From NCBI RefSeq assembly GCF_056746865.1, contig NZ_CM163382.1: a DNA stretch of 64,000 bases; one strand, given 5' to 3'. The notes beneath the pieces are model-generated. The model worked only from the letters and a program-made list of their open reading frames with translations, ran no database searches and was not told where the DNA came from. Made by a program: the position numbers and the translations under genes. Positions 26,510-52,292 of this stretch are shown piece after piece. The first letter of the stretch is position 1, and each line of letters opens with the position of its first letter.

Positions 26510-27742
26510 TCACTGCTCCTCCACTAGCTCGGCTGCCTGATGCTGGCGCACGCGATTGAGCAATCCCGCCAGGGTGAAAACGACGATAACGCCCGCCACA
26601 ACGGCTAACAGATGAAACGGCAAGCGACCGCCGTTAAACCATAGCCAGCGGCCGATTTCGACCGAGACCGACATCACCATCAGGATCACCATATTTAGCG
26701 ATGCGGAGACGGTCCCTTTCGGTAACTTATTGGAAAACAGCGTAAAGCGGAATAAGGTCGGGAAAATCAAACCAATCCCGAAAGCATACAGACTGGTGCC
26801 CAGCACCGACCACAGCCAGACGTGCGGCGACAGCAGATTGCCGACAATCAACAGCGAGAGGCCGACCAGTTGAATGGGTACGGCACGCCAGATAAACCGC
26901 GGTTCGGTCGGATCTTTAACAAAACGCGCCACGATGGCATTCGCAACAATCACCGCGCCGAACACCGGAACCTGTGTCCAGGCGAACTGCGAAGTTGTTA
27001 AGCTGCCTGCATCGATAAGGATCACCGGCGAGACAGCCACCCAGCTCATCATCGGGATATAGCTTAAAGAGATGGTTGCTGCGCCAAAGAGGAACAGCCG
27101 ATTGCAAAAGACATTACGAAAATCGCGCAAGACGCTTTTGGCGCTAAACGGAACCGCGCCGCGCTTCACCGTCTCTGGCATCGCCAACAGTAAGCCAACA
27201 AATGAGATAAAACCCATAACCGCAATGATGGCAAAAAGGACTTTCCAGTGCATAAAGTGCATCAGAGCTGCGCCGGAAAGCGGGCCGATAATCGGCGCAA
27301 TCAGTACGATGGAGGTGATAATCGCCATCAACTTGATCCCTTTTGTCTGTCCGAACGCCTCCTGCACCGTGACATAACCAACGGTGGCAATAAAACAGAT
27401 ACTGGTGCCCTGAATTGCACGCGCGATAAGAAACTGTGTCATAGACGTTGTGAACATTGTCGCGGCGCAGGCAAGGGTAAAAATTAGCGCCCCGGTAATC
27501 AGCACCGGCCTGCGGCCAATTCTGTCGGAAAGCGGCCCCAGCAGCCACTGTAACGCCATACCGCCAGCAAGATAGAGACTGACGGCAGCAGGGGCCAGAC
27601 TGACATCGGCATTAAAATCACGTACCACATTAATGATCCCAGGCTGGATCAGATCCGTCGACAGATACGCAGCAAAGTCATACAAAATCAACGCCATCGG
27701 GAAAAACAGCGTGGCGGCATGGCGGGTAAAAAAACGTGGCAT
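26510..27742 (-). CDS. mdtM: MFS multidrug efflux transporter MdtM (YjiO)
   Basis: 410 aa from [27 protein letters not shown]; MFS signature [13 protein letters not shown]; the track ORF has a 33-codon upstream extension. Confidence 0.85.
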
Positions 27743-28220
27743 AACAAACAACTCCTTGTCCGGAGAACCCCAACGGGGAAAACGAAATTCAATACCGTCG
27801 GTAATGACGAAAGGCAGGTGAGAAGGGCAACGAGACTGCAAATGTACTGAATTTCATGTAATCAACCACACTGCCTGTGAACACACAGACAGAGAAATAC
27901 TTTCTGACTTCGGGTCAGAATGTATAACGATTACAAATAGTCATCAGCACATTACACCTCTTGAATTGATGGGTTGCATAGAAAATATACACCTTAAGTG
28001 TAATTAAAATTTGCGGTTAATCAAAAGAGCGCGGTGGAAAGGGGAATATCTGCCGGGTACAGGACATGTAAAACGCGAGCTTGTTTCCGGAAAAATGTAT
28101 CGTTTGCAGAAGAATAAAAATAGCCTGGAAAGCGCCTCGGGGAATGGGAAATTGCCGGGTGAGAATGGTTTTGTTAGTCGCTAAAGTCAGGCCATCTTTT
28201 TCAACAGGTGATGGATCGCC

Positions 28221-29141
28221 ATGACAAACTTCACGACCAGCACGCCGCATGATGCATTATTTAAAACCTTTCTCACGCACCCTGACACTGCGCGGGATTT
28301 TATGGAGATTCATTTACCTAAAGATTTACGTGAACTGTGCGATCTCGATAGCTTAAAACTGGAATCCGCCAGCTTTGTCGATGAAAAATTGCGGGCGCTA
28401 CACTCCGATATTTTATGGTCGGTAAAGACCCGCGAAGGCGATGGCTATATCTATGTGGTGATTGAACATCAGAGCCGCGAGGACATTCATATGGCCTTTC
28501 GCCTGATGCGCTATTCCATGGCGGTGATGCAGCGCCATATAGAGCATGATAAACGCCAGCCGCTACCGTTGGTCATCCCGATGCTATTTTATCACGGTAG
28601 CCGTAGTCCTTACCCCTGGTCCCTGTGCTGGCTGGACGAATTTGCCGACCCGACTACCGCACGGAAGCTTTATAACGCCGCGTTCCCGCTGGTGGATGTT
28701 ACTGTCGTGCCAGACGACGAGATTGTGCAGCATCGCAGAGTCGCCCTGTTGGAGTTGATCCAAAAGCATATTCGCCAGCGCGATCTGATGGGGCTTATCG
28801 ATCAACTGGTAGTATTACTGGTTACAGAGTGTGCTAATGACAGCCAGATAACTGCGCTGTTAAATTACATTTTACTGACTGGCGATGAAGCGCGTTTTAA
28901 TGAGTTTATCAGTGAACTTACCCGTCGAATGCCACAACACAGGGAGCGAATAATGACGATTGCAGAGCGAATTCATAATGATGGATATATAAAAGGGGAG
29001 CAGCGCATTCTTCGATTGTTGTTGCAGAATGGGGCGGATCCTGAATGGATACAAAAGATTACCGGACTTTCGGCAGAGCAAATGCAGGCATTAAGGCAGC
29101 CCTTGCCTGAGCGTGAGCGCTATTCATGGCTCAAGAGTTAA
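28221..29141 (+). CDS. rpnD: Rpn-family recombination-promoting nuclease (PD-(D/E)XK, transposase_31-like), full length
   Basis: 306 aa, N-terminus [38 protein letters not shown] typical of the Rpn/YhgA family; uninterrupted reading frame. Confidence 0.8.
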
Positions 29142-29159
29142 TCAGAGACGGATGACAAA

Positions 29160-29330
29160 CGCAAAGCAGCCTGATGCGCTATGCTTATCAGGTCTACATA
29201 ACCCATTAAATATATTGAACTTTAAAGATTTTTGTAGACCTGGTCAGGCGTTCACATGGCATCCGGCATGAACAAAGCGTACTTTGCTTAATTCAGGCTG
29301 GAACGTGGCGATGACCCAGCAAAGATAAAA
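29160..29330. repeat. REP/BIME cluster
   Basis: GATGCGCTATGCTTATCAGGTCTACA and TGTAGACCTGGTCAGGCGTTCACATGGCATCCGGCATG palindromic REP units between rpnD and yjiR. Confidence 0.6.
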
Positions 29331-29384
29331 CGAGTCACAGGTTATGCATGAGAGGAAATCAGGCGCTTCGCCGCTATTTCGAAT

Positions 29385-30797
29385 TTATTCCATTGCCCGA
29401 TACACGGCCTCGCCAATTTGCTTCAGTGCTTCGCGATAGGTTTCGCTGAGCGGCAAAGCGCAGTTGATGCGCAGACAATTACGGTATTTGCCGGAAGCTG
29501 AGAAAATCGAGCCTGCCGCCACCTGGATTTTCATGCGGCACAGCTGCCGCGCGACGCAGACCATATCGACCTGTTCAGGCAATTCTATCCACAGTAAAAA
29601 TCCGCCTTTCGGGCGCGTAATACAGATTTCGCAGGGAAAATATTCCCGTATCCAGCAGGTATAAAGCGCCAAATTGCGCTGATAGATCTGCCGCATCCGC
29701 CGGATATGGCGATGATAGTGACCTTCCAGCACAAACGTTGCCGCCGCCATTTGCGTGGACGGCACATTAAAGCTGCTGATGGCGTATTTCATATGCATCA
29801 GTTTATCGTGATAACGCCCCGGTGCGACCCAACCCACGCGCAGGCCTGGTGCAATACTTTTACTGAACGAGCTGCACAACAGCACTCGCCCGTCGATATC
29901 CCAGGAATGAATGGTCCGCGGGCGCGGATACTCCGTCGCCAGTTCGCCATAGACATCATCTTCAAAAATCACAATATCATGACGCTGAGCGAGAGAGAGA
30001 ACGGCCCGTTTGCGCGCGTCCGGCATAATAAATCCCAGCGGATTATTACAGTTTGGCACCAGAATGATGCCTTTAATCGGCCACTGTTCCAGCGCCAGTT
30101 CCAGCGCTTCAACGCTGATGCCAGTTTCTGGATCGGTTGGGATTTCAATCACTTTCACGCCCATGCCGCGCAGCATCTGCATCGAACCGTAATAACAGGG
30201 GGATTCGACCGCGACAATATCGCCCGGTTTACACACTGCCATTAACGCCAGCGACATCGAGTTATGGCAGCCGCTGGTGATGATGATGTCATCGGCGGTG
30301 ACCACCGAGCCGCTGTCGAGCATCAGGCGGGCAATCTGCTCTCGCAATACTCGCTGACCGGCTAACAAGTCATAACCGAGAACGGTTTGCAGATTATGCT
30401 GCACCACCCGGCTTAGCTCCCGCCACAGCGGTTTCAGGCTGGGCGCTTCGACATCCGGTGTGCTTTTGCTTAACGGAACAATGGAACTGTCGCTATGCGC
30501 CTCCAGCATATCCAGCACCTGATCCCACTGGGTAATTTCCACCGGGCGCTGCACCGGACGCGTCATCGGCGGTACTGGCGGCTGGGCTTTACGTTGTGCG
30601 ACAAAATAACCCGAACGCGGCTGCGGAGTGATGAGCTTCATCGTCTCCAGCGTCTGATACGCCTGCTGCACGGTGCTGATACTGACGCCGTGCTCCTGAC
30701 TTAAGCTGCGCACCGACGGCAATTTCTCCCCGTGACGATACAGCCCTTGCTCAATCCGTTCGGCAAGCAGAGTCGCCAGATGTTGATAACGCGTCAT
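29385..30797 (-). CDS. yjiR: MocR-family transcriptional regulator (GntR HTH fused to aminotransferase-like domain) YjiR
   Basis: 470 aa; N-terminal HTH (LPSVRSLSQEHGVSISTVQQAYQTLE) and a large PLP-fold domain. Confidence 0.82.
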   Translation of the reverse strand: MTRYQHLATLLAERIEQGLYRHGEKLPSVRSLSQEHGVSISTVQQAYQTLETMKLITPQPRSGYFVAQRKAQPPVPPMTRPVQRPVEITQWDQVLDMLEAHSDSSIVPLSKSTPDVEAPSLKPLWRELSRVVQHNLQTVLGYDLLAGQRVLREQIARLMLDSGSVVTADDIIITSGCHNSMSLALMAVCKPGDIVAVESPCYYGSMQMLRGMGVKVIEIPTDPETGISVEALELALEQWPIKGIILVPNCNNPLGFIMPDARKRAVLSLAQRHDIVIFEDDVYGELATEYPRPRTIHSWDIDGRVLLCSSFSKSIAPGLRVGWVAPGRYHDKLMHMKYAISSFNVPSTQMAAATFVLEGHYHRHIRRMRQIYQRNLALYTCWIREYFPCEICITRPKGGFLLWIELPEQVDMVCVARQLCRMKIQVAAGSIFSASGKYRNCLRINCALPLSETYREALKQIGEAVYRAME

Positions 30798-30973
30798 GCT
30801 GTATTCCTTATGTGGACCATACAGAGAGAAAAACCGGTACAGATGAGGCTAAAAAACCGGATGCAGATGCTGTTTTAACCTGTCTGTATGTTAAATAAAA
30901 GTAATATTTGAATCTGTATTGTGAACTGCCAGAAGGTGGATGATGAAGCCTCTGAAAGATGAGGAGGTAGCAG

Positions 30974-31138
30974 ATGGAATTTCACGAAAACAGAGCTAAA
31001 GCGCCGTTTATCGGCTTGGTGCAACTCTGGCAGGCGGTGAGGCGTTGGCGGCGGCAAATGCAGACCCGACGCGTGTTACAGCAGATGAGTGATGAGCGGT
31101 TGAAGGATATCGGGTTACGCAGGGAGGATGTGGAGTGA
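30974..31138 (+). CDS. yjiS: Small DUF1127-family protein YjiS (54 aa)
   Basis: ATG at 30974 preceded by GAGGAGG; translation MEFHENRAKAPFIGLVQLWQAVRRWRRQMQTRRVLQQMSDERLKDIGLRREDVE, an Arg-rich DUF1127-like peptide. It is below the ORF-track length cutoff. Confidence 0.7.
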   Translation: MEFHENRAKAPFIGLVQLWQAVRRWRRQMQTRRVLQQMSDERLKDIGLRREDVE

Positions 31139-31588
31139 GGGGGGATATAGATTTATATATAATAAAACGTTTTTATGTTTTTAAATTAAGTTATAAAAAT
31201 TTTCCCGAGACAATTCATCAATAGGTATGGAGTGTACAGGAATATCTTCTTCACTAACCTCTTTAAACTCATGTCGATAACGGTCAAAAAACGCACAGTG
31301 ATTACTTGTGTTTTTTGACTGACTTTACAACTCTCATTATTCGCTATTGTGCAGTTTCTCTAATTGTTTTATACCCTGGAAAGTTAAATGTCAGCTACTG
31401 AATACTTTTTGATTGTTTGAGATTTATTTTCATTTGAAATTATAAAATCAGGTGATAAATGAGTTGTGATTAATAGATGGTTGATATCATTTTTATCTAA
31501 AATTGATTTATAGTATCGACCTGAAAAAATAGTTGTTGCCGCCTGAGTAACTATACAATATTCTGAAAGGTTTTCTTTCAAATTAGAA

Positions 31589-34500
31589 ATGTTGTGGGGT
31601 TTTGTTTTTGTATCTTTTATCTCTAAGGAGCTTGCTTTGGGTCAATCAGAATACATTTCATGGGTAAAATGTACTTCCTGGCTAAGTAACTTTGTGAATC
31701 TTAGAGGGTTGAGACAACCGGATGGCCGTCCTCTTTATGAATATCATGCAACCAATGATGAATATACCCAATTAACGCAGCTACTCCGTGCAGTCGGTCA
31801 ATCACAATCTAATATATGTAATAGGGACTTTGCTGCCTGTTTTGTTCTTTTTTGCTCTGAGTGGTACCGCAGGGATTATGAACGGCAATGCGGATGGACG
31901 TGGGACCCTATATATAAAAAAATAGGGATTTCATTCACCGCCACAGAGCTTGGTACTATCGTACCGAAAGGGATGGAAGATTACTGGCTGCGCCCAATTC
32001 GATTTTATGAATCTGAACGACGCAATTTTCTCGGAACATTATTCAGTGAAGGTGGTTTACCTTTCCGGCTACTCAAAGAATCAGACAGTCGCTTTCTGGC
32101 TGTTTTCTCCAGGATCCTTGGACAATATGAGCAAGCAAAGCAGTCAGGTTTTTCTGCCCTTTCGCTGGCAAGAGCTGTCATAGAAAAATCAGCGCTGCCA
32201 ACTGTTTTTAGCGAAGATACCTCTGTAGAACTTATCAGTCATATGGCTGATAACCTCAATTCCTTAGTACTTACTCACAACCTAATAAATCACAAAGAAC
32301 CAGTACAACAGCTTGAGAAGGTTCACCCTACCTGGCGAAGCGAGTTTCCAATACCGTTAGATGATGAAACAGGAACGCATTTTTTGAATGGACTGCTATG
32401 CGCAGCCTCTGTAGAGGCTAAGCCTCGACTACAAAAAAATAAGAGTACGCGTTGCCAATTCTATTGGTCAGAAAAGCATCCAGATGAGCTTAGGGTGATA
32501 GTATCTCTTCCGGACGAAGTTTCCTTTCCTGTAACAAGCGAGCCGTCAACTACGCGCTTTGAACTTGCCATTTGTGAAGATGGTGAGGAAGTCTCTGGCC
32601 TTGGGCCAGCCTATGCTTCTCTGGAAAACAGACAGGCAACAGTTCGATTACGTAAAAGCGAAGTGAGATTTGGCAGGCAAAATCCATCGGCAGGTTTGTC
32701 GTTAGTGGCTCGTGCTGGAGGGATGATTGTTGGGAGCATTAAACTTGATGACAGTGAAATTGCCATTGGTGAGGTGCCGTTAACCTTCATCGTTGATGCA
32801 GATCAATGGCTGTTACAGGGACAGGCTTCTTGCAGTGTGCGAAGCAGCGATGTTCTGATTGTGCTCCCTCGGGATAATAGCAATGTTGCTGGTTTTGATG
32901 GCCAATCGAGGGCAGTAAACGTATTAGGACTAAAAGCACTACCTGTGAAGGGATGTCAGGACGTTACAGTTACAGCAAATGAAACTTATCGGATTCGCAC
33001 CGGAAGAGAACAAATCAGCATCGGAAGGTTTGCTCTAAATGGAAAGCGTGCAAGCTGGGTTTGTCATCCAGATGAAACATTTATTGGTGTACCAAAAGTC
33101 ATTTCTACACTACCGGATATTCAAAGCATTGATGTAACGCGTTACCTGAGCGGAATTTCAATTGAGCAATGTCATATACAAGAGATGCTGGGGGCTCAAT
33201 ATCTTTCTATCCGTAATAGTAAGAATGAAACGCTCTTGCGTCGCAAAATCGGTATTTTGCCTGCTGATTTCAGTATTGAGATAAAAGGTGGAATACACGC
33301 AAATGAAGGCACTATCGTAATCACCACACAGCATCCTTGTGTAGCAAAACTTAAAGATAAAACATTGGAGGCTACACGTAAGCGTACTGAGGGGCGAACA
33401 GAGATACAACTCAAAGCGGAAGGGGTACCTCCGGCATTTATTACATTACAAGTTCTGCCTAATTTGGCGGCTGACCCCATCGATATTGAGTTACCTTTTC
33501 CCGCTAAAGGCTGTCTCGCTCTTGATGTAAACGGACGTCCTCTGGATAAAAACATTACGCTGCATGATCTGCTGGGTTCCAGAGCGTTTCTGTTCTCCAG
33601 AAATGGCGAGCCGACAAGATATACATTGCAGTTGCATTTGCGCTCCGTTAGTGGATTACAGGCATGGCACGAATGGTGTTATACGGCGTTGAGCGATCGT
33701 CCTGTTGAATTGAATCTCTATAGTCTGCGCGAACATATTGAGAACCTGATTTCACTTGAGGCAGGTATTGACCAGGTTGTTGAGATGCGTATTACGGGGG
33801 CGGGTGTGGTCATGGCCTGGCAAATTCGTCGCTATAAATACAGTCTGCGCTATGATTATGAAAAAGAACTATTACTCAGCCAGTCAGTGAACCATCGTGC
33901 TGGACAGATTCCTTCCCCCGTTATCATGCTGTTAAGTGAACCCGAGAGGAAATCCATCCCCTTAGCATCAAGAATGAGCGAGGGAGTGCCTGTCGGTGAA
34001 TATGAGTTGAGCTCAATCGTTAACAAAAATGGACCGTGGTTGGTTGTCCCTAAACCGGGTGAAGAGATGGCTTTTCGTCCCTGCTTCATTCGTGGCGAAT
34101 CTTCGTTACCGGTAGAAGAAAGCAACATCCGCTCATTGCAGAAAGCGACCCAGCTTTTTAATCCACAGGCAGAAGTTAATACCATCACACTGGTTCTCGG
34201 ACAGATGGCTAACGATCCTGCCCATTCCGGCTGGCAATTTATGCGTAGCCTGTACGATCAATTTGGTTATTTACCACTGGCAACCTTTGAAGTATGGCGT
34301 GCACTGGTGCAGCATCCGCAGGCATTGGCAATGTCGCTCTTCAAATTTGAAATGTCAGCAGAGTACCTGAGTCGTATTGAGAATGAGTTCCCTATTCTAT
34401 GGGAGTTTTTCCCCATCTTTGAGATCAAAGCGGCATCTGAGCGTTTCAAATTGTTCCTGAGCCAAAAAGGTGCACCGGAGGAAACCCAGAAATTACTGGT

Positions 34501-34927
34501 TACTAATATGTTTCAACGGCTGGGGCTCGTGTTCCCGACATATGCCGATGAAATTGAGAAATGGTTAAGTAACGGACATCTCCCCCCGTCTATTCCTGAG
34601 TCTTTTGTCCACGTGTGGTATCAGGAGCTTTTACGTGAGCATAGTGAAGCTCAATGGCCAGAGTACGGCAGCAAGCGGCTGCATAGCTGGATGGCATCAC
34701 AAAAAAATCCAGTGATTGGTATTAATCCTGACGCAAATCACCGCTATTCCGTGGCCTTGTTACCCGTCTTCGCTGCAGCTGTGGCAAGCGGAAATGCTTC
34801 TTTTGAATCTGTATTTGACCGTAAACCCGGTGCCGTATTTTTCCTGAGGCAAGTCAGGGATTTCGATTCCCGCTGGTTTAAGGCCATCTTCCAGTGCAGC
34901 CTGTTGCGTTATGTTGCTAAAAAATAA
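31589..34927 (+). CDS. Large protein of unknown function (up to 1112 aa), first gene of a two-gene candidate defence operon; DruH-like by architecture
   Basis: Long uninterrupted ORF ending 12 bp before the helicase gene. No P-loop, nuclease or methylase motif recognised by eye. Coding sequence is visibly AT-richer than its neighbours. An alternative TTG start at 31637 has an AAGGAG RBS 6 nt upstream. From memory this corresponds to a full-length version of the yjiT fragment of K-12. Confidence 0.75.
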   Translation: MLWGFVFVSFISKELALGQSEYISWVKCTSWLSNFVNLRGLRQPDGRPLYEYHATNDEYTQLTQLLRAVGQSQSNICNRDFAACFVLFCSEWYRRDYERQCGWTWDPIYKKIGISFTATELGTIVPKGMEDYWLRPIRFYESERRNFLGTLFSEGGLPFRLLKESDSRFLAVFSRILGQYEQAKQSGFSALSLARAVIEKSALPTVFSEDTSVELISHMADNLNSLVLTHNLINHKEPVQQLEKVHPTWRSEFPIPLDDETGTHFLNGLLCAASVEAKPRLQKNKSTRCQFYWSEKHPDELRVIVSLPDEVSFPVTSEPSTTRFELAICEDGEEVSGLGPAYASLENRQATVRLRKSEVRFGRQNPSAGLSLVARAGGMIVGSIKLDDSEIAIGEVPLTFIVDADQWLLQGQASCSVRSSDVLIVLPRDNSNVAGFDGQSRAVNVLGLKALPVKGCQDVTVTANETYRIRTGREQISIGRFALNGKRASWVCHPDETFIGVPKVISTLPDIQSIDVTRYLSGISIEQCHIQEMLGAQYLSIRNSKNETLLRRKIGILPADFSIEIKGGIHANEGTIVITTQHPCVAKLKDKTLEATRKRTEGRTEIQLKAEGVPPAFITLQVLPNLAADPIDIELPFPAKGCLALDVNGRPLDKNITLHDLLGSRAFLFSRNGEPTRYTLQLHLRSVSGLQAWHEWCYTALSDRPVELNLYSLREHIENLISLEAGIDQVVEMRITGAGVVMAWQIRRYKYSLRYDYEKELLLSQSVNHRAGQIPSPVIMLLSEPERKSIPLASRMSEGVPVGEYELSSIVNKNGPWLVVPKPGEEMAFRPCFIRGESSLPVEESNIRSLQKATQLFNPQAEVNTITLVLGQMANDPAHSGWQFMRSLYDQFGYLPLATFEVWRALVQHPQALAMSLFKFEMSAEYLSRIENEFPILWEFFPIFEIKAASERFKLFLSQKGAPEETQKLLVTNMFQRLGLVFPTYADEIEKWLSNGHLPPSIPESFVHVWYQELLREHSEAQWPEYGSKRLHSWMASQKNPVIGINPDANHRYSVALLPVFAAAVASGNASFESVFDRKPGAVFFLRQVRDFDSRWFKAIFQCSLLRYVAKK

Positions 34928-34939
34928 AAAGGAATAAGG

Positions 34940-37900
34940 ATGACTACACGCTATTTTTCGTCACTTATTGAACAATCGTTGTCTCGTTCAACTGAAGCAA
35001 CGCTCAGTATCATGGGCGTTACCAACCCGCAGCTGCGTGAACATCTCGCGCAACAAATGGGGGCTGATTGTGGGAAACCGGGCTCATTCCTTGCTTCTCC
35101 GGTATTCCAGCAAATGTTTGGCTGGAAGGAGTCAAACCACACGATGCGCAGCCTGACGGAAGGCAACGCATTGTTGAGCAAAGCAGTGGTTGATTCACTG
35201 GATGATCAGAATAATGGCCGGTACCGGTTTGGTGCTGACTGGAGGCCTTTTACGCACCAGTTAGCCAGTTGGAAAGCTTTGCTGGAAAAGAAACATTCAG
35301 TGGTGGTAACCAGTGGTACGGGTTCAGGTAAAACGGAATGTTTTATGGTACCGGTGCTGGAAGATCTTTACCGGGAACTGCATGAAAATGGCAACAATCC
35401 GTTGGTCGGTGTCCGAGCCCTTTTTCTCTATCCATTGAACGCCCTGATTAATTCACAGCGCGAGCGTCTGGATGCCTGGACGCGTGGTTTTGGTACAGGG
35501 ATCCGCTACTGCCTTTACAACGGCAACACCGAAAACCTACACGCTTCGGTAAAAAGCGAACAGGCAAAAAGGCCGAATGAGGTGCTCTCGCGCGAAAAAA
35601 TGCGTGAAGAACCTGCGCCGATTCTGGTGACCAACGGCACGATGCTGGAATATATGATGGTTCGCCAGGTCGACGCCCCGATTATCCAGCAATCTAAAGC
35701 ACAAAAATCACTACGCTGGATTGTACTGGATGAAGCGCATACCTATGTAGGGTCGCAGGCCGCTGAACTGGCGCTCCAGCTGCGTCGTGTGATGACCGCG
35801 TTTGGCGTGACACCAGATGACGTGCGCTTTGTCGCGACCTCTGCGACCATTGCCGGCAGCGACGCTGAAAAGCAGCTGAAAAAATTTCTCTCTGAATTAT
35901 CCGGTATCCCGCAGGAGCGCATCGATGTTCTGGACGGAAGTCGGGTGATTCCTGAACTGGAACCATCCAAAAACGTTTCTGTTCCGTTAGACGAGATAGA
36001 GCAAATACCTGATCTGGATCTAAGAGATAAAAATGATAATAAAATTAAAGGGATAAGTCCTGAGCGCTTTTATGCGCTTACGCATTCCCCCGAAGCGCGT
36101 TACATACGTGAGATGTTGGTCAAACAGCCCAATCCGATGAAGCTGGATGAGATAACAGAGCGGTTACACGTGCTGACAAAACAGCATTACAGCCAGCAGG
36201 AAGTACTGCGTTGGATCGATGTCTGTTCAGGGACTCAACCTAATGCAAAGGATCCCGCATTTCTTAAAGTCAGGGCGCATATCTTCCAGCGTAATACCCA
36301 GGGAATATGGGCTTGTGTTGATAAAGATTGCAGATTAAAGCACGGTACACCGCTCGACAAAGGCTGGCCCTTTGGCTATGTGTATGTGAACCAGCGACAA
36401 AATTGTGACTGTGGAAGCCCTGTATACGAAGTTGCATTCTGTAATGATTGTAATGAGCCTCATCTTCTGGCACGGGACAAAAAGGGCAAACTAGTCCAGT
36501 GGGAAAATAAAGGTGGCGATGAATTCTCTTTGCAGGATGAAGTACCTGTTGAACATGACGCTACAGAAGAAAAAGTCGAAAAAGAGAACAGTTTTCAGCC
36601 TCCGTTGATTATTGCCGCAGGAGAGACCAGCGAGGCAGGTTATACCCTACAACGCCTCGACCGTCAGACGCGCCGTATTGGCGTTATTAACAATGACAGC
36701 ATTCCGCTGATTATTAATGATATTGAACAGGTTTGTAGTGCCAGTGGCTGTGGCTACAGAGGCATGAGTGGGAAACAGCCCTTCCGGCGTGCACTATTAG
36801 GTGGGCCATTTTACGTTACTAATATCGTGCCCACCGTTCTAGAGTATTGTCAGGACTTTACCAGTGATGAAGGCAAAGAGGGCGTCGGACCAGATTCGTT
36901 GCCAGGACGAGGTCGTCGACTCATCACCTTTACAGACAGTCGACAAGGGACAGCCCGAATGGCGGTGCGTATGCAGCAAGAAGCAGAACGCAGTCGCTTA
37001 CGCGGAAGCGTAGTCGAAATTCTCAGCTGGCATCAAAGGACGCAAACGTCTACAGCGCCGAATGCCAATGCCGATCTGGAAAAATTAGCGGCCAGGGCGA
37101 AGCAAGCCCGTGAGCAGGCAGAAGAATATCGAAGCTGGGGAATGCCAGACCAGGCGAAATTGTCACAAGCACAGGCTGAACAGCTTGAACAGGCTTATCA
37201 GGCTGCAACCGGTGGGAAAGCTGCGACTATCCTGGTATCCCGAACCTGGACGGAGATGGTTAACGAGCTTAAAGAGAGAGCCGATATCCGCGGGCCGGTT
37301 CTGCAATATAACCATTATCTTAAGCCTGAAGTGTTTAATGAAAACGGCGGCCCCCTTAAGCTTTCTGAAATGTTGTTGTTCCGGGAATTCATGCGTCGCC
37401 CTAAACGGACTAACAGCCTGGAAACACAGGGGCTGGTTCAGGTTGGTTACCAGGGGCTGGAGAAAATACATAAGAGCCCCTTGCACTGGCAGGAAAAAGG
37501 ATTAACGCTGGATGACTGGCGCGATTTTCTCAAGGTTACGTTGGATCATTACGTTCGCGAGAGCAACTTCACACAGCTGGATGATGAGCTGAAAAACTGG
37601 ATTGGTAGCCGTTTTTCATCAAAATTCGTCCGTAACCCGGAATCAAAAGATCCTGAAGATAATCAGAACAGACGCTGGCCTCAAATTCGTAATGGCAACG
37701 TATCCCATCGTTTAGCGAAGTTGCTGATGCTGGGGGCTGGATTCAAAACCGTCAATGCGGCAACTATTGATATTATCAATACATGGCTGAAAGAAGCATG
37801 GGCCCAACTTACCGGACCGCTTGCAGTACTGAAACCCGATGGCAACCGTTTTTATTTACCGAAAGAGCATATGACTTTTTCTTTAATCACGGATGCCTGG

Positions 37901-40900
37901 ATTTGCCCGGTAACCAATAAAATCCTGGATACGGCTTTTAAAGGCTTAACCCCTTATCTGCCTACCCATATTTCGTTCGAGCATCTTACCCTGGCGCAAT
38001 ATGACACTTTTGTCGCGCAGAAAGTCACAATGCCGGAAATCTGGAAGCTGGATCGTTCACAGGAAGACTACGCAGAGGGTCTGGCAAAAGCACGCGACTG
38101 GGTCAGCCATGATCCGCTGATCGCACAATTGCGGTCGGAAAACGTCTGGACAGACATTAACGATCGTGTCGTGGAAGGCGGCTTCTACTATCGTACTGCC
38201 GAGCACTCTGCCCAGCAGTCGTCAGAACGTCTGCAAAGCTATGAAAAGATGTTCAAGAATGGGCAACTAAATGTTCTCAACTGTTCCACCACCATGGAAA
38301 TGGGGGTTGATATCGGGGGTATTACTGCGGTGGTAATGAACAACGTACCGCCACATCCGGCCAACTATTTACAGCGCGCCGGGCGAGCCGGGCGTAGTAA
38401 AGAATCACGCGCGATCTCTTACACCCTATGTAAAGGTAACCCACACGACCAGCAGGTTTTTGCCAACCCGCTCTGGCCATTTGAAACCATGATCCCGGCA
38501 CCCATGGTCGCGATGAACTCCGCCCGACTGGTGCAACGTCACGTCAATGCATTATTACTGTCCGACTTTTTATGTAACGTTATTGGCGAAACCGATAAAG
38601 AAAAAACCAGCCTCGATAGCCTCTGGTTTTTCGGTGAAGATGACGGGCAGTCAAAATGCGAACGCTTTAAAATCTGGCTGGAACGTCCGGTTCTTGATAT
38701 CGACACGGCGCTGGAACGGCTGGTGAAAGGTACGGCGTTGCATGGTGCAAGAGCCGAATATCTGCGGGATAAAACAATCAACGCGATCACCTTCCTGCAA
38801 CAGCGGTGGCTCTCCGTTTATCGCGATCTCGTGACACAGGAGCGTGAGTCGCAGCCGCAAACGCCTTATCGTAAGCGCATAGAGCTGGAGAAGAAACGGC
38901 ACTGTGGCGAGTATCTGCTGCGCGATCTGGCTGCCAGAACCTTCCTGCCGGGATACGGTTTCCCGACAGATGTAGTGACGTTTGATAACTTCACGATGGA
39001 AGATTATATCCGCGAAAAATCGCAGAAAAGTCGTGATAAAAAGGACCGTGAAGATAACGTTTCCCGTTATAAAGGATTACCTTCCCGTAACCTCGGTGTT
39101 GCCATTCGTGAATATGCACCGGGAGCAGAGATCATCCTTGATGGCCGTGTCTTCCGCTCTGCCGGTGTCTCACTGCACTGGCACAACATTAATGCTGATA
39201 CCAATGAAGCCCAGCGTCTGGATTGCGCCTGGCGCTGTCACAAATGCGGGACCATTGGCTATGAAGAGGGGATGAGCAGTTCCGGGATGCTCTTTTGCTC
39301 CAATAGCGCCTGCGGCGAAAAAATAATCATGGATAATCGCCGTCAGGTGCTGCAGCCTGCCGGGTTTGTCACCGATGCACACGCTCCGGTAACGAACAAT
39401 ATTGAAACCATGAAATTCGTCCCGGTTGTCCCCGCGTGGGTCTTTGTTAAAGCAGAGCCCGTACCGTTGCCTAACCCGCTAATGGGTTATATGGCTTCTG
39501 GGGCTGATGGGCATGTTTTCCAGCAAAGTTTGGGGGAAGGTGGACACGGTTATGCATTGTGTCTGAGCTGTGGCCGTGCTGAGTCGATGCTGAATGAAAA
39601 TGATGCGCCGAAAAGTATGGAAGCTCACTATCCACCGCGTCCGGGTAAAGCGGATCGCGACAGCCAGAATCATCGTCTGATTTGCCCCGGTTCGACGGCA
39701 CTCATGAAGAATGTCACCCTGGGCGCACTGGCGCGTACCGATGTCTTTGAAATGGTTCTGCGCAAACCGCAAAACGGCGAGTATCTGCCAGATAACACAG
39801 AGGAGGGGCGGATTGTTGCCATGACTCTGGCGGTTGCTCTGCGTCAGGCGCTGGCGGGCGTTCTGGGTATCTCCGCCGCAGAACTCGGCTATTCTGTACG
39901 TCCGGTCAGACTGGAGGATGGGCAATCGGTATTAGCCGTACAGCTTTATGATGTGATCAGCGGTGGTGCAGGTTTTGCCTCCAGCGCACCGGTACACATT
40001 GAAGCTATATTGCAGGGAATGGTGAAACAGTTAGGCTGCCGCCATTGTGAGACTGCATGTAGTGAATGCCTGCTTGATTCCCAGACTCGCCACGATCACG
40101 ATTTGCTGGATCGCAAAGCGGCGCTGGCCTGGCTTGGCGATGACTTCACGTATTACATCGGTTTACCGGATGAAGAGACATTCTCGCTGCCGGATGCCCG
40201 CTACTGCCCTGGCGCCATTGGCGATACGATTCGCCGGGCGATTAACGAAGGCGCTGAAAAGCTCACCCTGTGGATGACCGGCGCGCCCAATGAGTGGGAT
40301 TTATACGCACGTCAGTTCCGCGCGGCGGTTCAGAACTATCGGCTAAAAGACAACGTCGAGGTCGATCTTGTTATTCCTACGGGAGTGGATGACCCGGACC
40401 TGTTGCATGAACTATCGCAATTTACTGCGCTGGGTGTGCGGCTGTGCCATGTTGAACAGGATCTGCAATTACCGATCGTTGCCCAGGTCACCTTTACCGA
40501 TCGCGTGATGACGCTGGCCTCTCGCAGCCAGCAGGCAACGATTCCGGGGCCGGAGTGGCACCTGAATGACGAACTGGTGGTGCGTAGTCTCGGTTATAAA
40601 ACGGTAGAACTGAACGAGTTTATTCTGCCGGCTAAAGCCACCAACGCTGTCGAGCGGGTCAAAGACATTCAGATCCACAAACAGTTGAATGGACCACTGT
40701 CGCAGTTTGGGCAACGCTTCTGGGACGTGCTGTTTAACGACCATGAAGAAGCGCAGTCACTGATGAATAACACGCGAATTACCGGCGTTCACTATACCGA
40801 TCGCTATCTGCAAAACCCGGTTGCGCTGGCGTTGTTGGGATCAATTCTGAGACCGCTAAAAACAAAGCTGACCGATGGCGCTGAAGTGACGCTGGATACG

Positions 40901-41284
40901 CTATTTAAAGATAAAGATCGCCCCGGTAACCGGCCTTTCCATGACTGGATGAGCATAGCGGATTTTCAGGATTTCGCTGATCAGTGGTTTGCTGCTGCGC
41001 TGGGCAGGCCGGTAGAACTGACGGTGTTCGACTCGCCGCGCGATATCCCTCACCATCGTAAACTGACGGTGACTTTTGAGGATGGTCAGGTATTGAAGAT
41101 CCGCTTCGATCAGGGGATGGGCTACTGGCGCATCAACTTTTCATCGCAATGGCATTACTTTGATTTCCGCGATGACGTTTCTTTCCAGTTAGTCAAAATG
41201 GCTCAGGCCTGCAAGGAAGGGAATGTCGCCAACAGCGAAGAGAGTTGGGCAACGGATGTGCTGGTGGAGGTGATCGCCTCCTGA
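34940..41284 (+). CDS. Giant (2114 aa) superfamily-2 DEAH-box helicase with Zn-ribbon / DUF1998-like Cys clusters; DruE-like by architecture
   Basis: ATG at 34940 with AAGGA RBS. Walker A GTGSGKTE (35315-35338), motif II IVLDEAH (35720-35740), motif [10 protein letters not shown] (38372-38395), Cys clusters CAWRCHKCG (39224-39247) and [11 protein letters not shown] (40037-40069). Operonic with the upstream 1112-aa gene. Confidence 0.85.
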
Positions 41285-51377: not shown

Positions 51378-52292
51378 ATGACGGTTCCTACCTATGACAA
51401 ATTTATTGAACCTGTTCTGCGTTATCTGGCGACAAAACCGGAAGGTGCAGCCGCGCGTGATGTTCATGAGGCTGCCGCGGATGCATTAGGACTGGATGAC
51501 AGCCAGCGAGCGAAAGTCATTACCAGCGGACAACTTGTTTATAAAAATCGTGCAGGCTGGGCACATGACCGTTTAAAACGTGCCGGGTTGTCGCAAAGTT
51601 TGTCGCGTGGCAAATGGTGCCTGACTCCTGCGGGTTTTGACTGGGTTGCGTCTCATCCCCAGCCAATGACGGAGCAGGAGACGAACCATCTGGCCTTCGA
51701 TTTTGTGAATGTCAAACTTAAGTCACGGCCGGATGCCGTCGATTTAGATCCGAAAGCCGACTCTCCCGATCATGAAGAACTAGCAAAGAGCAGCCCGGAC
51801 GATCGGTTAGATCAGGCGCTAAAAGAGCTTCGTGATGCGGTGGCTGATGAGGTTCTGGAAAACTTATTGCAGGTTTCTCCTTCGCGCTTTGAAGTCATTG
51901 TTCTGGATGTTTTGCATCGCCTGGGGTATGGCGGCCACCGTGATGATTTGCAGCGTGTTGGCGGTACTGGAGATGGTGGCATCGATGGTGTGATATCGCT
52001 TGATAAACTTGGCCTGGAGAAAGTTTATGTTCAGGCAAAACGTTGGCAGAACACTGTAGGCAGGCCAGAATTACAGGCATTTTACGGCGCACTGGCTGGG
52101 CAAAAGGCGAAACGTGGGGTGTTTATTACCACTTCTGGATTTACGTCTCAGGCGCGTGACTTTGCTCAATCCGTCGAGGGTATGGTGTTGGTTGATGGGG
52201 AACGCCTGGTGCACTTAATGATCGAAAACGAAGTAGGGGTTTCTTCACGTTTGTTGAAGGTGCCGAAACTGGATATGGACTATTTTGAGTGA
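51378..52292 (+). CDS. mrr: Modification-dependent (type IV) restriction endonuclease Mrr
   Basis: 304 aa; N-terminal winged-helix and C-terminal Mrr-cat PD-(D/E)XK region (...VYVQAKRW...); divergent from hsdR. Confidence 0.88.
   Translation: MTVPTYDKFIEPVLRYLATKPEGAAARDVHEAAADALGLDDSQRAKVITSGQLVYKNRAGWAHDRLKRAGLSQSLSRGKWCLTPAGFDWVASHPQPMTEQETNHLAFDFVNVKLKSRPDAVDLDPKADSPDHEELAKSSPDDRLDQALKELRDAVADEVLENLLQVSPSRFEVIVLDVLHRLGYGGHRDDLQRVGGTGDGGIDGVISLDKLGLEKVYVQAKRWQNTVGRPELQAFYGALAGQKAKRGVFITTSGFTSQARDFAQSVEGMVLVDGERLVHLMIENEVGVSSRLLKVPKLDMDYFE

Follow-up and report, generated by a model that had tools for sequence, protein, structure and literature searches.

An intact wild-type allele of rpnD, with a predicted internal antitoxin frame, at the border of the Escherichia coli immigration control region

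The stretch of DNA analysed here (64,000 nucleotides of contig NZ_CM163382.1, RefSeq assembly GCF_056746865.1; hereafter the window) carries what is nearly certainly, as regards both its identity and its intactness, a wild-type allele of the chromosomal Rpn-family gene rpnD of Escherichia coli. Its product is probably a nuclease toxin that is restrained by a separately made copy of its own C-terminal domain and that plays a conditional role in defence. The gene, its lesion in K-12, the activity of the repaired protein, the gene-within-gene antitoxin and the place in the island have already been published (2015, 2017, 2023, 2025); in particular, the studies of Kingston (2015-2017) described that K-12 has a stop, that most E. 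coli have the gene intact and that the repaired protein is active. Among the mildly new observations made here, the chief one is that three independent lesions which break the long reading frame all spare the small frame nested within it. The features of the locus are collected in Table 1.

Table 1. Coordinates of rpnD, of the elements within it and of the downstream genes in the window.
Feature	Position	Strand	Basis or remark
rpnD (formerly yjiP/yjiQ), long form RpnD_L, predicted nuclease toxin	28221..29141	+	ORF, PF04754, TIGR01784, RefSeq twin, K-12 identity
Transposase_31 / YhgA-like domain, residues 8-210, containing the PD-(D/E)XK core	28242..28850	+	Pfam match
Catalytic motif codons D63 (28407-28409), E82 (28464-28466), Q84 (28470-28472)	28407..28472	+	Alignment; RpnA mutagenesis
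D11, R94, D165 of the PDDE motif	28251-28253, 28500-28502, 28713-28715	+	Further residues important in RpnA
Codon 104, CAG (Gln) in the window, K-12 amber site (TAG)	28530..28532	+	Comparison with NC_000913.3
Promoter-like site (ATGACA, 18 nt, TAAATT, TG before the second hexamer), candidate rpnD_S promoter	28837..28866	+	Consensus scan
Shine-Dalgarno AGGGAG, 6 nt 5' of the internal start	28941..28946	+	Duplex energy
rpnD_S, in-frame from Met245, 62 aa plus stop, predicted intragenic antitoxin and oligomerisation domain	28953..29141	+	Alignment with RpnA
Strain-variable four-residue repeat tract, shortest form YIKGEQ	28986..29003	+	Allele alignment
yjiT, full-length	31637-34927		
DEAD/DEAH helicase, 2114 aa	34940-41284		
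mcrC, mcrB, symE, hsdS, hsdM, hsdR, mrr	mrr 51378-52292		Downstream of yjiR and yjiS, beyond the helicase

The window gene and its K-12 counterpart

The rpnD frame runs uninterrupted on the + strand from an ATG at 28221 to a TAA ending at 29141, that is, over 306 codons plus stop. A chance ORF is excluded and the gene is real, since its product matches PF04754 (Transposase_31, YhgA-like) with an E value of 4.5e-87 and 291.3 bits (cut-off 21), the match covering positions 1-202 of the 203 in the profile, as well as TIGR01784 ('Rpn family recombination-promoting nuclease/putative transposase') with 160.6 bits against a cut-off of 52.1. The original prediction of a full-length, uninterrupted Rpn-family gene of 306 codons at this place is borne out by the frame and by both matches. 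The same sequence is found in RefSeq as an intact Rpn-family CDS (WP_000181202.1) of E. coli FDAARGOS_497, and the identity between that strain and the window amounts to 99.998% over 41.4 kb.

Within the family, the window protein is 48-62% identical to the K-12 Rpn paralogues in alignments, and it scored 392.6 bits with the RpnA equivalog model NF007361 of NCBIfam, below the cut-off of 583; it is a paralogue of RpnA and not RpnA itself. RpnA (YhgA) of K-12, which is the biochemical exemplar of the family, is 58% identical to the window protein and has a like order of domains, its catalytic residues falling at matching numbers and its internal methionine M244 corresponding to M245 of the window. 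The two differ in their location, the gene of RpnA lying at feoC-bioH, and in the C-terminal end, which is longer by 14 residues in RpnD.

In the MG1655 chromosome (NC_000913.3), positions 4568998-4569918 are annotated 'rpnD, b4584, pseudogene' and likewise span 921 bases. By base-by-base comparison, 918 of the 921 bases are identical to those of the window (99.7%). The order yjiN, mdtM, rpnD, yjiR, yjiS, yjiT is also common to the window, K-12 and FDAARGOS_497, with yjiN and mdtM upstream of rpnD on the opposite strand and yjiR, yjiS and yjiT downstream. Because of this synteny and of the DNA identity, the window gene can be taken as the orthologue of K-12 rpnD. Two of the three differences are synonymous, and the sole coding difference is a C to T in K-12 at gene base 310; it falls at position 28530 of the window and replaces CAG (Gln) by TAG as codon 104. 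The K-12 lesion is a single nonsense (amber) mutation, neither a frameshift nor an insertion. The earlier statement that K-12 carries a disrupted copy under the names yjiP/yjiQ was thus correct, and the pairwise alignment that had been proposed for locating the lesion has now reduced it to one C to T, K-12 not being intact.

The K-12 gene described in the literature (b4584; PMC4498929, PMC5350276) shares its locus and its length with the window gene, and the encoded proteins are identical except at codon 104; with TAG at that codon the long form is not made in K-12, whereas the window has CAG. The premature stop was reported, and a repaired copy made, by Kingston in 2015 (PMC4498929). The codon chosen for the yjiPc repair is not stated in the main texts of the Kingston papers (PMC4498929, PMC5350276); provided that the repair used Gln, the window protein would be the very YjiPc/RpnD that was tested experimentally. 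Gln occupies codon 104 in every other allele compared. Strains with supE44 (glnV44) insert Gln at amber codons, and in common cloning strains the K-12 amber might be read through to exactly wild-type RpnD.

The distribution of the two versions was followed in complete E. coli genomes with a 61-base query centred on the codon 104 site. Exact matches to the CAG version were found in 258 genomes and to the TAG version in 338, all 11 of the sampled TAG genomes being K-12 laboratory derivatives, including ER1709, NEB 5-alpha, S17-1, J53, BW25113 and MG1655. One K-12-derived strain, ET12567 (NZ_CP045457.1, hit H83), is one base off the K-12 amber 61-mer (98.4%) and may have a non-K-12 or reverted rpnD region. 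Of 5426 complete E. coli genomes, 4242 have a homologue of rpnD; the copy number per genome has a median of one and a maximum of two, and 4247 of the 4249 places are chromosomal. K-12, the usual host in which phage defence is assayed, is devoid of the long form of RpnD.

The predicted nuclease toxin and its internal antitoxin

The rpn genes have been described as genes within genes, the variable C-terminal domain of the long protein (RpnL) being also made separately, as RpnS, from an internal start (Zhong 2023; PMC10400941). This study has revealed that RpnS binds RpnL and blocks its toxicity, its induction of the SOS response and its cleavage of DNA, neutralisation by the small protein having been shown for RpnA, B, C and P2, and that strains differ in the C-terminal domain by repeats of four residues, on which the specificity of pairing depends. 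An internal transcription start was found in all five K-12 rpn genes, and for each of them a small protein carrying an SPA tag was detected (PMC10400941). Similarly, Ribo-RET experiments have yielded internal initiation peaks for all five, rpnD included (10.1101/520783).

The window gene shares this architecture: its variable C-terminal domain opens with an in-frame start codon that has a ribosome-binding site of its own. The small protein RpnD_S had been overlooked by the original prediction. The duplex of the Met245 start region with the 3' end of 16S rRNA is the strongest among the in-frame start codons of rpnD (-7.4 kcal/mol, against -3.8 for the main start). Met245 aligns with Met244 of RpnA, which mutagenesis has proven to be the start of RpnA_S, and this methionine is invariant in RpnA-E. 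The first residue of 7TH0, the crystallised chain of RpnA_S and the only solved structure related by sequence, also aligns with residue 245 of the window protein. On its own, the rpnD_S product gave nothing but noise in Pfam (E at least 0.08), with no match to DUF4351. Genome annotations give the locus as 'Rpn family nuclease/putative transposase' only, and leave the internal small protein out.

As for transcription of the small frame, the promoter-like site inside rpnD has an extended -10 element, matches the consensus at 9 of 12 positions and lies about 87 nt upstream of Met245. The consensus scan that found it returned three sites where 2.2 were expected by chance, so that it is weak evidence alone, and its hexamers are invariant in 10 alleles, yet they are also coding sequence. 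This site may be where transcription internal to rpnD starts. No + strand promoter was detected upstream of the main rpnD start at the threshold of the scan.

With regard to the long protein, the residues D11, D63, E82, Q84, R94 and D165 are all present in the window protein, numbered as in RpnA, and an alignment with RpnA-E and five other rpnD alleles shows no change at any of them. The catalytic residues have therefore not been lost from this copy, as the earlier suggestion that it may be functional presupposed. In RpnA, activity was lost when D11, D63 or E82 was replaced by alanine or Q84 by lysine, and it was modulated by R94 and by D165 of the PDDE motif (PMC5350276). Mg-dependent DNA endonuclease activity has been demonstrated in vitro only for RpnA (PMC5350276, PMC10400941). 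An AlphaFold2 model, computed from an alignment of 10 sequences (five rpnD alleles plus RpnA, B, C and E), is too weak to confirm the fold, with a mean pLDDT of 57 and a pTM of 0.38; around D63 and E82 it has a strand-strand-strand-helix-strand arrangement compatible with a PD-(D/E)XK fold. In vivo, about 90% of recA-deficient cells died when the repaired yjiPc was induced, and a dinD reporter of the SOS response was switched on (PMC4498929). The protein YjiPc was subsequently renamed RpnD, and the loss of its last 45 residues was found to weaken it (PMC5350276).

We propose that the locus most probably works as follows. RpnD_L (306 aa) would be a PD-(D/E)XK DNA endonuclease with D63, E82 and Q84 in its active site, which when free would damage DNA, induce the SOS response and bring about the death of recA-deficient cells, a rise in RecA-independent recombination being a by-product of the free protein. 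RpnD_S (62 aa) would be made in-frame from Met245, probably from a short transcript that starts inside rpnD, by means of a ribosome-binding site predicted to be much stronger than that of RpnD_L. The small protein, whose predicted sequence is that of the C-terminal domain of RpnD_L, would bind this domain, probably in a two-plus-two complex in which the nuclease is off, and the pairing between the small and the long protein would be set by the tract of four-residue repeats that lies in the domain's first helix. The nuclease would then be freed by phage infection, or by some other disturbance in which RpnD_S is lowered or released, and phage yield would be limited.

For RpnD itself, the literature has shown the toxicity of the repaired K-12 protein, its induction of the SOS response and its boost to recombination, as well as synthesis of the small protein in K-12, while RpnD-specific neutralisation, cleavage in vitro and protection against phage are extrapolated from RpnA, RpnB, RpnC and RpnP2. 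The last of these, encoded by the plasmid gene rpnP2 of ECOR13, is the only Rpn protein for which protection against phage has been shown; it acts against T-even phages, and only at pH 8.5 or at low temperature (PMC10400941). RpnP2 belongs to the Rpn family and has the long-plus-small architecture according to that paper, but it is plasmid-borne whereas RpnD is chromosomal. PADLOC v2.0.0, whose database is of the same year as the Rpn paper, had no model matching the long or the small RpnD protein, and the defence role is thus uncorroborated by PADLOC.

Recombination, decay and transposition as alternative readings

RpnD might instead be a recombination enzyme that promotes RecA-independent replacement of the neighbouring defence island or of other horizontally acquired DNA. 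Induction of yjiPc raised RecA-independent recombination about 5-fold (4.7- to 5-fold; PMC4498929, PMC5350276), and rpnD is located at the border of a variable region, both of which speak for such an enzyme. However, overexpression of YjiPc left the distribution of crossover classes around the island unchanged, indicating no targeting (PMC4498929), and recombination and toxicity were uncorrelated between paralogues (PMC5350276). Deletion of the four active rpn genes of K-12, rpnA-D, was also without effect on basal recombination (PMC5350276), which suggests that their physiological activity is low or conditional. The effects on recombination were later reinterpreted as consequences of toxin overexpression (PMC10400941), and an enzyme dedicated to such replacement appears unlikely. 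The idea that an intact copy could contribute to plasticity of the island survives in so far as the repaired protein does raise recombination about 5-fold, but not as regards any targeting of the island (PMC4498929).

It is more doubtful still that rpnD is an inert remnant on its way to decay, intact by chance in a lineage that has not yet acquired a lesion. Independent inactivating lesions have arisen in K-12, O157:H7 and strain 1604D011, and the paralogue RpnE is inactive (PMC5350276), as such a remnant would lead one to expect. When the window allele was compared with five other intact alleles, however, dN/dS was 0.05-0.10 over codons 1-244, at a synonymous divergence of 0.13-0.23, and 0.32-0.58 over the final 44 codons. 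Given these values, the nuclease domain is under strong purifying selection, which is not the case of the tail, where constraint is relaxed. All catalytic residues are kept, and the repaired K-12 protein was active in vivo (PMC4498929, PMC5350276), two further points against an inert gene.

The synonymous divergence just mentioned was obtained over 28221-28952 between the window and loci L004 and L006-L009. Values of 0.13-0.23 look high for an E. coli chromosomal gene. Such high divergence fits the description of the region as a 'bastion of polymorphism' (PMC12707154).

Finally, rpnD could be read as an insertion-sequence transposase from the names that databases use ('putative transposase', 'ISNCY family transposase', and Transposase_31 for the Pfam family) and from a sub-threshold match, of 386.8 bits, to the NCBIfam model NF007418 ('ISNCY family transposase'), but this is refuted for practical purposes by a score under the 583-bit cut-off of NF007418, by the absence of terminal inverted repeats and of flanking direct repeats (target duplications) around rpnD, by a median of one copy per genome at one fixed chromosomal locus across 4242 genomes, and by the lack of evidence for autonomous transposition of rpn genes (PMC10400941).

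Defence island, allelic variation and broken alleles

The rpnD gene lies 2.4 kb from the mcrBC/hsd/mrr defence island, and its placement at the edge of a defence island, as first proposed, is confirmed by mcrBC, hsdRMS and mrr downstream and agrees with the published position at the proximal border of the immigration control region (PMC4498929, PMC12707154). According to a 2025 review, rpn is one of the three toxin-antitoxin systems of this region, and the conserved genes that bound it are yjiN and yjiA (PMC12707154). In place of the full-length yjiT and the 2114-aa helicase of the window, one finds in K-12 a yjiT that is truncated and the pseudogene yjiV, and rpnD is thus not the sole gene of the island border that is intact here and damaged in K-12. 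Two stretches of the window are missing from K-12 within 31589-41284, one of 3.0 kb (33145-36163) and one of 2.2 kb (38312-40495), and these account for the full-length yjiT and the helicase.

In every locus that was opened except one, rpnD is flanked by mdtM/yjiN and by yjiR. In the exception, strain CFSAN067215 of serotype O18:H1 (L009:1-1721), yjiN rather than mdtM is directly upstream of rpnD, and no yjiR was found within 400 bp downstream. In the annotation of some other genomes, the end of the rpnD match falls on a GntR-family regulator. Both cases indicate that the immediate flanks of rpnD vary between lineages.

To describe variation within the gene, eight other rpnD loci from across the identity range were fetched and aligned with the window. 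The differences between alleles concentrate just after HNDG, 11 residues past Met245. At this place the tract reads YIKGEQRIL in the window and in K-12, and WLLGREKGKEEGEQRLL (8 more residues) or WLLGRERGRKEGKEEGEKSLL (12 more) in others, examples of the forms with 8 or 12 extra residues being WLLGREKGKEEGEQ and WLLGRERGRKEGKEEGEK, while O157:H7 has 4 extra residues; the numbers of extra residues, 0, 4, 8 or 12, are all multiples of four. Four-residue repeats were reported to begin 8-20 residues after the internal methionine (PMC10400941), and the start of the window tract, which falls within this range, matches that description. The last ten residues exist in two forms, one of which is ESKRDPWIEY, and these combine variously with the number of repeats. 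Other wild alleles, such as WP_000181180.1, WP_000181166.1 and WP_000181175.1, share the locus with the window gene, are 92-95% identical to it in protein and have an almost unchanged nuclease domain, but they have 8 or 12 extra residues in the tract and often differ from it in the last 10 residues. The short-tract class to which the window belongs, with at least 95% DNA identity to the window, is a minority of 867 among the 4242 genomes, the remaining 3375 being 90-95% identical.

The long frame is broken in three of the loci, those of K-12 (L001:4999-5919), strain 1604D011 (L010:401-1344) and O157:H7 F7349 (L005:401-1358), and the RpnD_S frame is kept in all three. In strain 1604D011 a single base pair is deleted near codon 76, and the small ORF, of 70 aa, is intact. 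In O157:H7 F7349, the frameshift leaves an intact small ORF of 66 aa, and the lesion (L005:1133-1182) is a tandem duplication of 25 bp, the internal ATG among them. The first copy of the duplicated segment, with the Shine-Dalgarno, opens a frame of 16 codons, and the second copy opens the intact small ORF, 25 nt farther from the Shine-Dalgarno. This 958-bp form of rpnD was found in several O157:H7 records.

The pattern allows a bolder reading, which we consider tentative and rather improbable. The long-plus-small pair of wild E. coli would be a conditionally triggered anti-phage nuclease that guards the border of the immigration control region, lineages would inactivate it only by lesions that spare the small frame, and an orphan RpnD_S would be useful in itself, for instance by neutralising an incoming rpnD allele that matches it. 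The amber at codon 104 in K-12, the 1-bp deletion near codon 76 and the 25-bp duplication of O157:H7 all fit the sparing of the small frame, with three lesions (n=3) and no statistic attached to them. If this were true, K-12 strains with supE44 would re-express exactly the wild-type toxin.

Some smaller elements were noted around the gene. The spacer between rpnD and yjiR contains a REP-like imperfect inverted repeat at 29169-29247, with arms at 29184-29210 and 29221-29247. In an Rfam scan of 27500-31600, the only match was a sub-threshold one, to ES036, on this element (minus strand, 30.3 bits against 37.6). Fourteen bases at the left end of the element, GCCTGATGCGCTAT, recur exactly within rpnD (28501-28514), probably by chance, since these bases encode the conserved residues RLMRY. 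On the other side of rpnD, transfer of coordinates from K-12 places the 11-codon small-protein gene ytiE on the minus strand at 27915-27950, in the intergenic region between mdtM and rpnD.
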